In this document: one piece after another, positions 5,499 to 15,754 of the stretch
Layout of the letters: every line of letters starts with the position of its first letter
How positions within the stretch are numbered: position 1 is the first letter of the stretch
Assembly (NCBI GenBank): GCA_965216315.1
Contig: CBDCFN010000016.1
Location: forward strand, 2,016,001-2,080,000
Length of the DNA: 64,000 bases
Source of the DNA: a bacterium
GTDB lineage: Bacteria; UBA10199; 2-02-FULL-50-16; JAJFLM01
Direction: 5' to 3'
Position numbers and translations under genes: made by a program
Notes under the pieces: model-generated
Seen by the model: the letters and a program-made list of their open reading frames with translations, nothing else
The model's database searches: none
What the model was told of the DNA's origin: nothing

Positions 5499-5576
5499 CA
5501 CACTCAAAGGCCAAATCGAGTGTGATCTCTGTTCACACTAAACACTCGAATGTGAACATATGACGTTCACACTCAC
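5499..5576. promoter_or_regulatory. TGTGA/TCACA half-site cluster, candidate upstream activator sequence
   Basis: CACACTC(5499)/GAGTGTG(5518) inverted pair; TGTGA 5521, TCACA 5533; TGTGAAC-N7-GTTCACA 5551-5571. Lies 90-170 bp upstream of a sigma54 motif. Confidence 0.5.
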
Positions 5577-5605
5577 TCGGGATTTGTCGCTCCCTTCGAA
5601 TGCCA

Positions 5606-5638
5606 TATCAATTTTTTATAAGTAATATCAATTAGTTA
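5606..5638 (+). promoter_or_regulatory. Two tandem IHF consensus sites
   Basis: TATCAAttttTTA (5606-5618) and TATCAAttagTTA (5626-5638) match WATCAANNNNTTR exactly. Confidence 0.65.
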
Positions 5639-5665
5639 TAATTTTATCGGGACTGAGGCCCGGCT

Positions 5666-5680
5666 TGGCACAGGGCTTGC
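5666..5680 (+). promoter_or_regulatory. sigma54 -24/-12 promoter
   Basis: TGGCAC-AGGGC-TTGC followed by T; intergenic, downstream of IHF sites. Confidence 0.8.
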
Positions 5681-5700
5681 TCTATAGCCTAGTGTACATG

Positions 5701-5847
5701 CTGAGGTGGTAACAGATTTTAAAAGCTCCATGCGCACCCACTACACCTCAGTGACTCTCTGGTTGGAGTCATCATGATTCCGGCTAGGGACCACTAACCT
5801 GCCCCATCGTCTGAATCGCACCTAGGGCGATGGGGCTTGGTTAGCGG
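5701..5847 (+). ncRNA. Candidate structured 5' leader or small RNA
   Basis: Three stems: CTGAGGTG/CACCTCAG, TGACTC/GAGTCA, and GCCCCATCG/CGATGGGGC extended by CCACTAACC/GGTTAGCGG. Confidence 0.4.
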
Positions 5848-5884
5848 AAAGACATTAAATAACTTTTTTATGGGGATGGACGAA

Positions 5885-6250
5885 ATGACACAACTTGGAC
5901 AAATCGCACGCGTCATCTATCAAAGACCCGATGGTCAGTTCGGTTGCACCATGACCGCTTACACGCGGCTCGCCGAATTAGATTTCGACAATCCGGTCCT
6001 GACATATTCCGAATACCGACAAGCAACGGATAAGGCCAAGATACCGGAAGGCACTCGCATCACGCGTCTTATCATCGGTCGTTATTTGTACGCCGTCGAC
6101 GACCACTCGCTCGATTTTCATGTCCAGCTCGCCGAAACACCTATTGAGCCCGTCTGTCGCCTGGAAATCAATTTTAGTTGGGAAACGGTCGGTGTCCTTC
6201 AAAATTACAACGAAACACCAGAAGAGACACCCGCCCAAATAGACATTTAA
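5885..6250 (+). CDS. Hypothetical protein, distant paralog of 14931..15239
   Basis: ATG 5885 after a purine-rich SD-like tract (start uncertain); shares the D..N....EY......A[KR][IL]P...R pattern with 14931. Confidence 0.7.
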   Translation: MTQLGQIARVIYQRPDGQFGCTMTAYTRLAELDFDNPVLTYSEYRQATDKAKIPEGTRITRLIIGRYLYAVDDHSLDFHVQLAETPIEPVCRLEINFSWETVGVLQNYNETPEETPAQIDI

Positions 6251-6396
6251 TGTCCCCATGACAACCCAGTGCCTCGCCGTTTGAAGCGAAAGCTTCGGCG
6301 GCGGGGCCACTTGGTAACACAACTAACGAGCTTTTGCTTGCTTCAGCGATGAAGCACGGTCCTGTCGTCTTTTCATCCCGGTTAGGCGGCGGGGCC
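6251..6396 (+). ncRNA. Candidate structured intergenic RNA element (GTCCCCATGAC + hairpins)
   Basis: Hairpins with GNRA loops (GAAGC-GAAA-GCTTC; TGCTTCA-GCGA-TGAAGCA) and two stems ending GCGGGGCC; the 5' motif recurs at 15259. Confidence 0.5.
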
Positions 6397-6428
6397 AACA
6401 AATTTTTGATTTAAGTAAGGAGAACGAC

Positions 6429-6800
6429 ATGAGCGGTGACGGAACAATTAGCCCAAATGTGGAACGAGTTCTCGGAGACATGAGAACACGTGATGACCTT
6501 GACCAACAAAGACTCTCAGAGCAAGTATCACAAGGATCCGGAAACCAAGACGGTACCGCCCAAGCAATCGCGGCACTGAACCAAGTCGCCGGGACAATTA
6601 CCCAAACCATAACAAGTGTAACGGAACAAGCGACGGCAGCTGGACAGTCCCAGGCCGCAGCACAACAGGCCGCCGTCCAAAATCAAGAAGACAGTCGCGA
6701 AGGACATATTATGCTCAACGTGCTCGAAGCGAATCGCGAAGCTGATGCGCAGATGTTTGGTACCGGCCTCGGCGCGCCCAGACACGTCCGCAATGTCTAA
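6429..6800 (+). CDS. Hypothetical Gln/Ala/Thr-rich helical protein
   Basis: SD TAAGGAG upstream of ATG; 123 aa; no signal peptide. Confidence 0.8.
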   Translation: MSGDGTISPNVERVLGDMRTRDDLDQQRLSEQVSQGSGNQDGTAQAIAALNQVAGTITQTITSVTEQATAAGQSQAAAQQAAVQNQEDSREGHIMLNVLEANREADAQMFGTGLGAPRHVRNV

Positions 6801-6852
6801 ATAGAGTCTTTTCTCATCTGTCTAGGGGTTTGAGAGGGAGAGGAGATAAACC

Positions 6853-7425
6853 ATGCCAAATAGAATTATCGTTGCTCAAGGACGCAACTATACTGTTTAC
6901 GTCGATGATGCCAATCACGACGGTGTCTATAATGAAGGGGAGCGTCTCTCTGTACGTGAAGGCCGGGGGAGTCTATCTCATCGGCAAAGTGACGTCGACG
7001 GCGTACTCGAGCGACTCGGTGTCCACGAGTTGCGTCCTGGCATCCGCATCGAACCCTTTCGCGCTTACCTGGATCAATTGCGTCATGCTCGACAATCCGC
7101 CTCCGCTGGCAACCCGGAACACACGGTTAATCATATATTACAAGCGCAGGACTATGCACGACAGGCCGGTATTCAAGCCGATCATCGCGAACTCGCTCGG
7201 ATCGGATCTCGCTGCATTGAGCAATGGTGTCAGAAACGCTATGAACATGGCGGTGACCGCGAGCGTGATAAGATCCAACGCTTTTTAGATCAGATCCAAC
7301 GTGAAATCAGCCGGGCTCCAAGTGAAGTGACACAAACCGACCGCGCCCTAAATGTACTCCGTGATCTTCCGAGACTTACCGATTTTCAAGAACAAGGCGA
7401 ACCCTTAGCGTTGAACGAAGATTAA
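6853..7425 (+). CDS. Hypothetical protein with N-terminal DxNxDG motif; paralog of 7466
   Basis: SD AGGAG; VDDANHDGVYNEGERL ... ERLGV. Confidence 0.8.
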   Translation: MPNRIIVAQGRNYTVYVDDANHDGVYNEGERLSVREGRGSLSHRQSDVDGVLERLGVHELRPGIRIEPFRAYLDQLRHARQSASAGNPEHTVNHILQAQDYARQAGIQADHRELARIGSRCIEQWCQKRYEHGGDRERDKIQRFLDQIQREISRAPSEVTQTDRALNVLRDLPRLTDFQEQGEPLALNED

Positions 7426-14344: not shown

Positions 14345-14350
14345 AGGTGT

Positions 14351-14379
14351 ATTGTAAAGTGTGCACAACGAAGGGTCAA
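14351..14379 (-). promoter_or_regulatory. sigma70-type promoter of the kinase-activator gene
   Basis: TTGACC-N17-TACAAT on the minus strand, 6 nt before an in-frame GTG. Confidence 0.6.
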
Positions 14380-14437
14380 TAATTCACAATTGATGGAGGG
14401 ATTGACGCTGAAATCGCCGCTGCTCAGCGGCATTTTA

Positions 14438-14500
14438 TGTGAATAAAATGTGAATAAAGTGTGATATAAATGTGATGTAATAAGTGTGATATTTTTGTGA
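14438..14500 (+). repeat. Six phased TGTGA direct repeats, candidate enhancer
   Basis: TGTGA at 14438, 14449, 14460, 14471, 14485 and 14496 (spacing 11,11,11,14,11). Confidence 0.75.
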
Positions 14501-14581
14501 TATCCGCAACTCCCCTAATCAAAATAAATTTTAGCACAATAATTTCAGTGAGTTATAAGCTAACTATTTCGGGGAAATAGT

Positions 14582-14596
14582 TGGCACACATATTGC
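14582..14596 (+). promoter_or_regulatory. sigma54 -24/-12 promoter
   Basis: TGGCAC-ACATA-TTGC(T); IHF-like TTTCAGtgagTTA upstream; GGAGG SD downstream. Confidence 0.85.
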
Positions 14597-14637
14597 TATA
14601 CACAATAAGTGTTTACATAATTTTTGGAGGTATAAAT

Positions 14638-14934
14638 ATGTCAGGCACACGTATCAGTCGTTACGACACGCATCCCCAGGGCGATACCGACCCGAACACA
14701 TCCCAGCGCGGTCCCGAGGCAGCGCGGGCTCACGATATCAGCCATACGGCTCGCGATCTCAACGAGGCGAGTTATCAAGCATCTCAACAATTGGATCGGG
14801 TCACGCAAACTCGCCCGAGGCGACAACGTCCGGCACGCATGACTCAACAGGAGATCATGGAAACTCAGCAGCGACGCAATAATGAGCTCGCCCGCATCAT
14901 CGAAGGAGCTTTACAGACGAGGACAAGACGATGA
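14638..14934 (+). CDS. Hypothetical Arg/Gln-rich protein (MSGTRISRY)
   Basis: GGAGG 14626-14630 then ATG 14638; ATGA overlap with the next gene. Confidence 0.8.
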   Translation: MSGTRISRYDTHPQGDTDPNTSQRGPEAARAHDISHTARDLNEASYQASQQLDRVTQTRPRRQRPARMTQQEIMETQQRRNNELARIIEGALQTRTRR

Positions 14935-15239
14935 GAGCCGAGTTTATCGTTCAAATCGATCAAGGAACTCAAACCATTGGAACATCTTTCCGTCCCGACC
15001 GGAATGATCCCTCAAACTTTCGCGTCAGCCGGCGTGAATACGATGAGATGCTCGCGAATGCGCGGCTTCCCGCGAACGCGCGATTGATCGGTGTCCAAGT
15101 CGGGGATCATTTTTTTCCGGCCGGGACTTCGGATCAATTTTATCGATTGTTCCGGCGCGGTCCGCTTCGCCCCGCACTACGACGGCGCGGCCCTGCGTTT
15201 TGGCAATCATTACAAAGCTTTCTTAACCGTTTGATATGA
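14931..15239 (+). CDS. Hypothetical protein, distant paralog of 5885..6250
   Basis: Coupled to the upstream ORF by ATGA; EYDEMLANARLPANARL aligns with EYRQATDKAKIPEGTRI. Confidence 0.75.
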   Translation: MRAEFIVQIDQGTQTIGTSFRPDRNDPSNFRVSRREYDEMLANARLPANARLIGVQVGDHFFPAGTSDQFYRLFRRGPLRPALRRRGPAFWQSLQSFLNRLI

Positions 15240-15258
15240 GGATTTAATTTTAAATTTC

Positions 15259-15328
15259 GTCCCCCATGACGACCTAGGTCCCGCGGCTTTCCACTGGTAG
15301 GAGCCGCGGGGCCCCTCCTCTCTTTTTT
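15259..15328 (+). ncRNA. Second copy of the GTCCCC(C)ATGAC+hairpin element (may double as terminator)
   Basis: GTCCCCCATGACGACCTAG, then a GGTCCCGCGGCT...AGCCGCGGGGCC stem, then a pyrimidine/T tract. Confidence 0.45.
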
Positions 15329-15343
15329 AAAAAGGAAATGACC

Positions 15344-15754
15344 ATGTCAGGCAAAGAAGTTTCACGATATACAAGGCCCCGACCCTTACCGAACTCGACT
15401 CAGCCCGCAACAGTCGCTCAACCTACAGGTCGGGCAACACCGGCCCGAACGACTCAATATATGGCTACTCCGACGGGACAGCAGGCCCTGCAAGCAATCG
15501 AACAACGACGACAAATACAAGCAACGACACGTTACGAACAAACTTTGCGCCACGCCCCCATGCGTCACGGGAATATTACCTTTCGTCCAGGCGATCGCGT
15601 CATTTCAGTCAGGGATCCAAATCACGTCGTCACGATCGACCACTTCGAAACCCGTAGAGGATACGGCTGGGCTATTTTCCGCAATGGCGGGGAATCTCCT
15701 ATCGAAGATATTCACCATTATCACACCCCGGCATCACCAACGCGATCAGAATGA
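15344..15754 (+). CDS. Hypothetical protein (MSGKEVSRY) with Pro/Thr/Gln-rich N-terminus and small beta-rich C-terminal domain
   Basis: AAGGA SD; ATG 15344 (alternative 15338); FRPGDRVI resembles the start of a KOW/SH3-like fold. Confidence 0.75.
   Translation: MSGKEVSRYTRPRPLPNSTQPATVAQPTGRATPARTTQYMATPTGQQALQAIEQRRQIQATTRYEQTLRHAPMRHGNITFRPGDRVISVRDPNHVVTIDHFETRRGYGWAIFRNGGESPIEDIHHYHTPASPTRSE

Follow-up and report, generated by a model that had tools for sequence, protein, structure and literature searches.

What does a giant sensor-activator control when its gene lies between two sets of small genes? The question is raised by a locus in a 64,000-nucleotide stretch of bacterial DNA, here called the window (G000:C16:2016001-2080000; G000 is the source assembly, 2.96 Mb in 16 contigs), in which an open reading frame (ORF) for an activator of σ54-dependent transcription stands between module A, encoding proteins A1-A4, and module B, encoding B1-B3. 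On balance, we lean towards reading this locus as a lineage-specific σ54 regulon, in which the giant sensor-activator switches two neighbouring operons. The best-supported view of its parts is that the type of circuit is ordinary, that the sensor-activator is unusual and unstudied, and that the outputs are undescribed. The first-pass annotation of this DNA had proposed that a STAND/TPR sensor drives a dedicated programme of small proteins and RNAs. The wiring it implied is backed here by rare RTGTGAW sites, an rpoN gene and linkage in two relatives (G001, from the same family, and G010, from another family of the same class), whereas a recurring twin layout and the supposed singularity of the locus were not supported.

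Exact copies of the σ54 promoter TGGCAC-N5-TTGC are present ahead of both modules, where the first-pass annotation had placed them (Table 1), and precede ORFs with a ribosome-binding site (RBS) by 190 bp in module A and by 30 bp in module B. The window contains three exact copies vs 0.14 expected, a count reached in one of 100 shuffles. Genome-wide we found 61 (108 if TGGCAT is allowed), compared with ~6 expected by our own arithmetic for uniform base composition. Since the genome also has one rpoN gene (one Sigma54_DBD) and 21 PF00158 matches, of which 17 are full Sigma54_activat domains, the organism evidently uses σ54 heavily.

The TGTGA repeats annotated ahead of both promoters were confirmed by direct reading. 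In cluster A the half-sites form two inverted pairs, TGTGA-N7-TCACA as well as TGTGAAC-N7-GTTCACA, and lie ~120-170 bp upstream of the predicted start; the six direct copies of cluster B are spaced by 11, 11, 11, 14 and 11 bp, and its single TCACA adjoins the −35 element of the activator gene. Both arrays lie ~110-170 bp ahead of the predicted transcription starts, upstream distances at which enhancer-binding proteins bind, and have the rare motif RTGTGAW in common. Clusters with at least four TGTGA or TCACA per 100 bp number only five genome-wide, vs 3,655 single pentamers; two of these five flank the activator gene outside ORFs, and by our reading of the sequence the other three lie inside ORFs. 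The sites for integration host factor (IHF) that had been claimed for both modules were found as two exact consensus matches in module A, between cluster A and the promoter. The module B spacer (14500-14580), in contrast, has no exact match to the consensus WATCAANNNNTTR and is 'IHF-like' only loosely. Five genes of the HU/IHF family are present in the genome.

The annotation of the product encoded between the modules, divergently from module B, as a kinase-NTPase-TPR-GAF activator of ~1570 amino acids (aa) is largely borne out by its Pfam domains. It matches Pkinase (PF00069, 135.8 bits), TPR_12 (44.2 bits vs a cut-off of 30.1), GAF, GAF_2, Sigma54_activat (PF00158, 231.8 bits, residues 1248-1414), AAA_lid_14 and HTH_8 (35.1 bits, residues 1519-1554); scores for its STAND part were 31.9 bits with AAA_16 (cut-off 32.6) and 21.3 bits with nSTAND6 (cut-off 27.7). 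The translation reads the ATP-binding Lys (VALKVLK), the catalytic HGDIKPAN and DFG, and the Hanks-type kinase domain is apparently active. Both P-loops can likewise be read, GLTGTGKN in the STAND part and the Walker A motif GESGTGKE in the AAA+ domain. NifA is the best NCBIfam match of the last ~530 residues (1043-1562); at 409.9 bits it stays below the curated cut-off of 528.85, and identity with NifA (TIGR01817) was rejected. The TTG listed as the start is overlapped by a σ70-like promoter, so that translation probably begins a few codons further into the ORF; the public gene call is 1556 aa long.

In its C-terminal ~530 residues (GAF, σ54 AAA+, HTH_8), its place beside a −24/−12 promoter with upstream sites and the IHF sites of module A, the activator resembles enhancer-binding proteins of the NifA/NorR/FhlA type. 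It differs from these in ~1040 additional N-terminal residues (kinase, STAND NTPase, TPR), in a GAFTHA loop and in putative targets that are orphan proteins of no known pathway. MalT and AfsR are STAND transcription activators, and mycobacterial PknK is a kinase-STAND protein. Like them, the activator has a P-loop NTPase, putatively of AAA_16 type, followed by TPR-like repeats and joined to a DNA-binding output, and MalT reads direct-repeat arrays resembling the site array of module B; unlike them, it has as output a σ54 AAA+ motor with a Fis-type helix-turn-helix (HTH), not LuxR or SARP acting on σ70 promoters, and its AAA_16 match falls just under the Pfam cut-off.

The same kinase-STAND-TPR-GAF-σ54 architecture is found in public proteins called 'sigma 54-interacting transcriptional regulator'. 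A search with the STAND/TPR part returned 12 non-self proteins, nine with both Pkinase and Sigma54_activat; two are named at their sources, one as 'sigma 54-interacting transcriptional regulator [Deltaproteobacteria bacterium]' and the other as 'transcriptional regulator with GAF, ATPase, and Fis domain/serine/threonine protein kinase'. To our knowledge, giant kinase/STAND/TPR/GAF activators are numerous in uncultured lineages, and none has a known signal or output. A full-text literature search found no description of a kinase-STAND-GAF σ54 activator and zero papers pairing 'Sigma54_activat' with 'Pkinase'; passages of PMC1262709, PMC3696898 and PMC11032199 do not mention a kinase-σ54 fusion.

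An activator beside its targets is not singular, and the locus stands out less than the first-pass annotation had supposed. The architecture is named in public databases, and the layout recurs within the genome: eight of the 17 activators lie in ORFs of 1287-1698 aa, and five of these eight giant paralogs face a divergent TGGCA[CT]-N5-TTGC within 700 bp upstream. Two further giant paralogs have, by position, an exact promoter ~0.9 kb upstream or 0.6 kb downstream. Because five of eight face a σ54 promoter, the layout is a habit of the lineage and not a one-off. The downstream genes vary from one giant paralog to the next, with lipoproteins in three cases. For the giant activator located elsewhere in the window (Table 1), the divergent promoter precedes the gene of a 459-aa lipoprotein, a paralog of the lipoprotein beside another activator (C16:1005644). 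The closest paralog (C15:295635-300371) is 38% identical to the activator, and the genes downstream encode an ISNCY-like stand-alone HTH protein and orphans. Stand-alone HTH proteins of ~115-125 aa were seen at C15:300.4-301.1 kb, in G001 (L060 1845-2213) and in G010 (L052 3514-3891). They are similar to the N-terminal part of ISNCY transposases (56.9 bits vs a cut-off of 250), their genes stand behind σ54 promoters and adjoin A1- or A4-type genes or the closest activator paralog, and they may be second-tier regulators.

Relatives retain much of the surroundings of the activator. In G001 its ortholog (contig C210) is 51% identical over residues 3-1571; upstream lies the gene of a small membrane protein 50% identical to that encoded at 8380-8748 of the window, and a gene for a lipoprotein weakly related to the window lipoproteins is divergent from the activator. 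A 3-kb contig of G001 (C354) carries tandem A3/A4 homologs behind TGGCACAAGCCTTGC and a 340-nt structured leader, the second gene being cut by the contig end; because of the gene order in the window, C354 is predicted to join the start of C210. In G010 (contig C54) the order is A4 homolog, TGGCAT-type promoter with an HTH gene, lipoprotein, more genes, TGGCAC promoter with a 279-aa gene, and activator. The latter is 65% identical to ours over residues 998-1571 and 51% over residues 9-424, and is located 9.5 kb from the A4 homolog. Activator orthologs keep the HTH recognition stretch LGISRRYLYTQ, and TGTG-type sites are present upstream of two σ54 promoters in G010 (TCACATAAATGTGA, TGTGTTCACA) and upstream of the promoters of the A1 and A3/A4 homologs in G001 (GCACATTTATGTGT and two TCACA). 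A search of genome contigs with the activator gave one distant Syntrophales match, which was of no use for synteny. Co-occurrence of the modules with the activator elsewhere was found in part: the link with module A recurs in G010, where an A4 homolog shares the contig, and in G001, where the neighbours of the activator match those in the window, whereas module B was seen in this genome only. The twin-module arrangement was likewise seen in this genome only, A1 and the G001 homolog being the only relatives found for B2.

The gene order reported for both modules, i.e. an A1- or B2-type gene, a GTCCCC(C)ATGAC element with a hairpin, and an ORF starting with MSG (A2, MSGDG; B3, MSGKE), is as described, and B1 also starts with MSG; the common start of B1 and B3 is MSG(T/K)(R/E)(I/V)SRY. 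The reported paralogy of A1 and B2 is detectable but weak, with a pairwise E of 8e-5 and 20% identity across 75 residues. One A1 homolog is present in G001 (contig C270, 40% identical); it is preceded by a TGGCAC-N5-TTGC of its own and overlaps, at its stop codon, with the beginning of an ISNCY-like HTH gene. With an A1/B2 profile, 5.8 billion proteins yielded only the three query proteins (A1, B2 and the G001 homolog), and the A1 model (pLDDT, the predicted local distance difference test, 73.3; only three sequences) had no fold match (best Foldseek E 0.83, best Z 3.8). The ESM Atlas gave no usable match for A1 or A4. A2 and B1 are orphans, and so is B3 in its first half: B1 had no match in the five closest genomes searched and B3 no credible match in the 93 genomes covered by our class-wide scans. 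The sole candidate A2 homolog, in G001 (contig C187, E 0.02, five relatives searched), was rejected as a low-complexity Ala-rich stretch with no σ54 promoter. Searches of Pfam, NCBIfam, PADLOC and PHROGs gave no match above threshold for any of the seven module proteins (B1 reached 16.9 bits with CARMIL_C of Pfam, cut-off 25), in agreement with the claim that they lack a recognised family; that they also lack a signal peptide was judged by eye. By a codon-usage coding score trained on 810 long ORFs, each of the seven ORFs had its annotated frame ranked top among the six, with a clear margin for A1-A3 and a weak one for A4, B1 and B2.

A3 and A4, which belong to a small family, are paralogous over the N-terminal ~90 residues (E 2e-9, 32% identity). 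When 1.84 billion representatives were searched with a profile built from these two proteins and three relatives, 60 proteins matched at E ≤ 1e-3, 21 of them at E ≤ 1e-10; a search of 5.8 billion proteins with the single A4 sequence returned only itself. No Pfam family was assigned to 55 of 58 members scanned, the exceptions being one sub-threshold line and two weak tail matches carrying unrelated domains. Members have the N-terminal ~125 residues as common unit, and longer ones contain repeats of a helical motif. The profile matches 26 of the 93 class genomes; a third, distant family gene of this genome (C16:183509-183871, forward strand, in a 373-aa ORF, E 1.3e-7) is located far from the locus. 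The AlphaFold2 model of A4 (31 sequences; mean pLDDT 84.6, predicted template modelling score 0.72) begins with three strands (residues 2-35) around the loop D-R-N-E-N-G-V-Y-D, an acidic DxNxNG loop that fits by eye the EF-hand-like DxNxDG pattern; residues 44-192 form a helical bundle and residues 218-248 a C-terminal helix. Foldseek returned nothing convincing for this model (best E 0.53). A membrane phosphotransferase-like fold, the best VIA-align match, was rejected: its Z of 8.4 and root mean square deviation of 4.3 over 130 residues are in a range common for helical bundles, and unrelated helical proteins score just below. The family has, then, a confidently predicted fold with no convincing match to a solved structure.

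The closest relatives of A3 and A4 (P0002, P0003, P0005 and P0006) add a small C-terminal domain, followed by a proline-rich stretch and a short amphipathic tail that may target the membrane. A3 and A4 are without this domain, and B3 has it: residues 77-123 of B3, its C-terminal ~50, share 38% identity with this domain in P0006 (pairwise E 2e-5). A hidden Markov model of the domain from the four relatives, run over every six-frame ORF of 50 aa or more in this genome (25,241 in total), matched only B3 at E ≤ 10 (E 3e-4). Modules A and B therefore together encode what the relatives have in one protein. Four features, the common site motif, the A1/B2 similarity, a common element and the B3 C-terminal domain, tie the two modules together.

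The GTCCCC(C)ATGAC element with its hairpin was confirmed in both modules (fold z-scores −6.1 in module A and −2.9 in module B), and a third copy was found in G001. All three copies contain the invariant CCCATGAC(A/G)ACC and the 3′ arm GCGGGGCC, and each forms a short GUC-loop-GAC hairpin with a C-rich loop (CCCAU, CCCCAU and CCAU) followed by an 11-14-bp G+C-rich hairpin. RNAalifold found three of 15 pairs kept through two-sided changes, a thin result, given that the alignment has only three sequences and is off by a base in one of them. A covariance model returned the three copies at E ≤ 8e-12 over the class genomes; a further match (G001:C312) was a terminator-like hairpin without the 12-mer and was rejected. 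The 12-mer alone occurs in 50 of the 93 genomes, and among 30 loci inspected, a subset of the matches, the hairpin accompanies it only at the G000 and G001 loci beside A3/A4-type genes. Scanning metagenomes for CCCATGACRACC-N18-48-GCGGGGCC gave at least 120 stretches. Among the matches listed, none had an A3/A4-family ORF beside it at E ≤ 0.01; by eye these matches are chance occurrences in G+C-rich coding DNA, often ATG-ACG-ACC gene starts, and the best look-alike among them (L134) is the start of an ORF. Rfam returned no match at E ≤ 1 on either strand of 5000-19000, and a terminator scan none at the hairpins 6269-6315 and 15277-15313. A U run starts 9 nt past the stem in module B; module A has none.

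With its CCCAU-loop hairpin and long G+C-rich hairpin 3′ of a gene, the element is reminiscent of the UCCC-motif RNAs of Staphylococcus. It differs from these in the absence of an Rfam match, of an adjacent U tract and of a terminator in the scan, in being known from three copies only, and in that its 12-mer can be read as a mini-ORF start, ATG-ACR-ACC, the one variable base falling on a synonymous position. Candidate mini-ORFs are MTTQCLAV (module A), MTT-stop (module B) and MTTTAPSQ, none with a good RBS. In G001 the element is found in the leader, immediately upstream of the A3/A4 homologs, and in the window upstream of A2-A3-A4 and upstream of B3; by this position it goes with the distal genes and not with A1 or B2. 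It could be a protein- or RNA-binding hairpin for read-through or stability, a 3′-derived small RNA of A1/B2, or a mini-ORF, and most likely it would set the share of the transcript, or of its translation, that reaches the distal genes. Two other sets of leaders were noticed. Long structured ones (190-340 nt, z ~ −4.6) follow several σ54 promoters in G000 (also at C15:300.45-300.73 kb) and G001. Near-identical stretches of ~33 nt containing CTTGTCCCCATGACAAG occur at C15:349963 (−), C15:336731 (−) and C16:1699628 (+); on the other strand they form a hairpin GUC-AUGGG-GAC directly before AGGAGGAG and the start codon. They differ from the element of the modules and look like a 5′ leader that three genes have in common.

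Several observations weigh against one activator switching both modules. Its σ54-contacting loop (near residue 1330) is GAFTHA, not GAFTGA; the loop pattern was located in 14 of the 17 activator domains of the genome, and 12 of these 14 end in TGA. The His is kept in orthologs (GAFTHA in G001, GSFTHA in G010 and G051), and GAFTHA recurs in one paralog of this genome. Array A is made of inverted pairs and array B of direct 11-bp repeats, and one protein need not read both; winged-helix response regulators, too, typically use direct repeats at 11 bp. The position of module B is taken in G001 by a lipoprotein gene, with no exact σ54 promoter, searches with B1, B2 and B3 did not find module B outside this genome, and a σ54 motif lies within 450 bp upstream of only three of 30 A3/A4-family ORFs of the class. 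The closest paralog, C15:295635, shares the GAFTHA loop with the activator, resembles it in its HTH and has TGTGA/TCACA close to a divergent promoter of its own, so that cross-talk or mis-assignment is possible. Together with the fact that TGTGA and TCACA are CRP half-sites, the features of this paralog and the different layouts of the two arrays would fit a reading in which the promoters are real and the arrays are read by another protein (the closest paralog, a winged-helix regulator or one of CRP/FNR type), the activator controlling one module or none. We consider this reading unlikely. σ54 promoters need an AAA+ activator, the arrays lie at the usual binding distance of such activators, the sole two non-ORF clusters of the genome both flank the activator gene, and orthologs with a near-identical recognition helix keep TGTG-type sites by adjacent σ54 promoters. 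Nor do the sites have the N6 spacing of CRP: TGTGA-N6-TCACA does not occur in module A, where the spacings are N7 and N11, or in the direct repeats of module B.

The coding scores of B1 (0.05), B2 (0.01) and B3 (−0.03) are low, and that of B3, indistinct from the −0.07 of its next frame, also tells against a regulon with two protein-coding outputs. Module B might accordingly be partly non-coding (B1, B2 and the N-terminal half of B3), a decayed duplicate of module A whose main product is a leader or non-coding RNA with the element; no homologs were found outside this genome, and the element is its best-conserved piece. We consider this very unlikely, given that each of the three ORFs has an RBS at proper spacing and its annotated frame as the best of six, that the B1 stop overlaps the B2 start, that B2 aligns with A1 and the G001 protein, and that the B3 C-terminal domain is recognisable as a family domain. 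An anti-phage or conflict system, in which the kinase-STAND protein senses infection and the small orphans are on-demand effectors or toxins, is more improbable still. Defence systems often contain STAND NTPases and Ser/Thr kinases, the putative effectors of this locus are fast-evolving orphans, and PADLOC aligned the activator with the kinase models PD-T4-6 (176 bits) and mad6 and its AAA+ part with RtcR/PspF-type models. However, these are matches to generic kinase and AAA+ domains, and of the ten locus proteins tested the nine neighbours of the activator had no PADLOC or PHROGs match. Moreover, G+C is 0.49-0.54 across the locus, like the surrounding sequence, no mobile-element genes were seen there, the genome has eight such activators, several beside lipoprotein genes, and the synteny with the membrane protein and lipoprotein is kept across families.

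Beyond module B, the window has a third exact σ54 promoter, which the first-pass annotation had overlooked and upstream of which no TGTGA cluster was seen. The ATG at 18271, preceded by AGGAG and ~30 bp past this promoter, is the likely start of a candidate metalloprotease gene, which runs convergently with module B; its product, a secreted FG-GAP protein, has weak reprolysin/M6-like matches and an HELGH region. A run of lipoproteins whose N-terminal halves are acidic and of low complexity is encoded at 18562-19686 and 19853-21076 (43% identical to each other), 21086-21781 and 8791-9642, and weak relatives of the window lipoproteins adjoin the activator orthologs in G001 and G010.

Table 1. 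Positions of the features described in the text (window coordinates unless a genome is named).
Feature	Position	Strand	Remarks
Upstream site cluster A	5521..5571		four TGTGA/TCACA half-sites forming two inverted pairs
Two exact IHF-consensus matches	5606, 5626 (5606..5638)	+	WATCAANNNNTTR; between cluster A and promoter
σ54 promoter, module A	5666-5680	+	TGGCACAGGGCTTGC, exact match
Structured 5′ leader of module A	5692..5884	+	three hairpins; 5692-5840: −60.4 kcal/mol, z −4.64
A1	5885..6250	+	121 aa; small alpha/beta protein, weak B2 paralog
Element A	6252..6315	+	hairpin GUC-CCCAU-GAC inside invariant CCCATGACAACC, then 14-bp G+C-rich hairpin
Second hairpin	6360..6398	+	reuses 3′ arm GGCGGCGGGGCC; just ahead of A2 RBS
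A2	6429..6800	+	123 aa; Gln/Ala-rich orphan, starts MSGDG
A3	6853..7425	+	190 aa; A3/A4 family
A4	7466..8218	+	250 aa; A3/A4 family
Small membrane protein	8380..8748	+	weakly DUF3592-like; conserved activator neighbour
Lipoprotein	8791..9642	+	divergent family; also neighbours activator in G001 and G010 (weak, E 1e-3 to 1e-5)
Activator	9647..14368	−	1573-aa ORF; kinase, STAND NTPase, TPR, GAF, σ54 AAA+, HTH_8
σ70-like promoter of activator gene	14379-14351	−	TTGACC-17-TACAAT, consensus match only
Upstream site cluster B	14384..14500		one TCACA at 14384 and six direct TGTGA(A/T) at 14438-14500
σ54 promoter, module B	14582-14596	+	TGGCACACATATTGC, exact match
B1	14638..14934	+	98 aa; basic hydrophilic orphan, starts MSGTRISRY
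B2	14931..15239	+	102 aa; weak A1 paralog, start overlaps B1 stop
Element B	15259..15313	+	hairpin UCGUC-CCCCAU-GACGA inside CCCATGACGACC, then 12-bp hairpin
B3	15344..15754	+	136 aa; starts MSGKEVSRY (ATG 15344)
Secreted FG-GAP protein	18271-15746	−	841 aa; behind third σ54 promoter
Third exact σ54 promoter	18316-18302	−	overlooked in first-pass annotation
Second giant kinase-type activator	26023-30777	+	1584 aa; divergent TGGCATATCTATTGC promoter near 25.8 kb
Third element copy	G001, L002 1712-1643	−	CCCATGACRACC-plus-hairpin kept

From these features we infer how binding, activation and co-regulation would proceed if the locus is the σ54 regulon favoured here. The activator would be made from its own σ70-type promoter and, on a signal, would oligomerise at the RTGTGAW arrays upstream of both σ54 promoters, where its ATP hydrolysis would open both closed promoter complexes; in module A, two IHF sites might assist activation by bending the DNA. 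The operons would then yield small cytoplasmic proteins, A1-A4 and B1-B3. As to localisation and role, the proline-rich linker and amphipathic helix of the A3/A4 family, together with neighbours that are a membrane protein, lipoproteins and a secreted protease, weakly suggest products at the inner membrane face and an envelope or cell-shape response. This suggestion draws on our reading of the C-terminal sequences and on the neighbours. A bolder version, which we think quite unlikely, would have an undescribed membrane-face apparatus built around A3/A4 (a new fold with an EF-hand-like loop, a bundle and an amphipathic tail, B3 supplying a beta domain), driven by a kinase/STAND-switched developmental or contact programme of a 'Deltaproteobacteria'-like lineage, with the distal genes gated by a new cis RNA element or an MTT mini-ORF.

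New in this locus are a related pair of operons on one rare site motif, the splitting of family domains between the two operons, the A3/A4 family with its confidently predicted fold, and a short element conserved across genera. With one activator, two promoters, a rare site motif, a conserved element and a small family, the locus is a compact test case, and understanding it would reveal how signalling chains made of one protein work and which programmes they drive. Even if it proves ordinary, a whole family of regulators gains from it a target set and a site motif.

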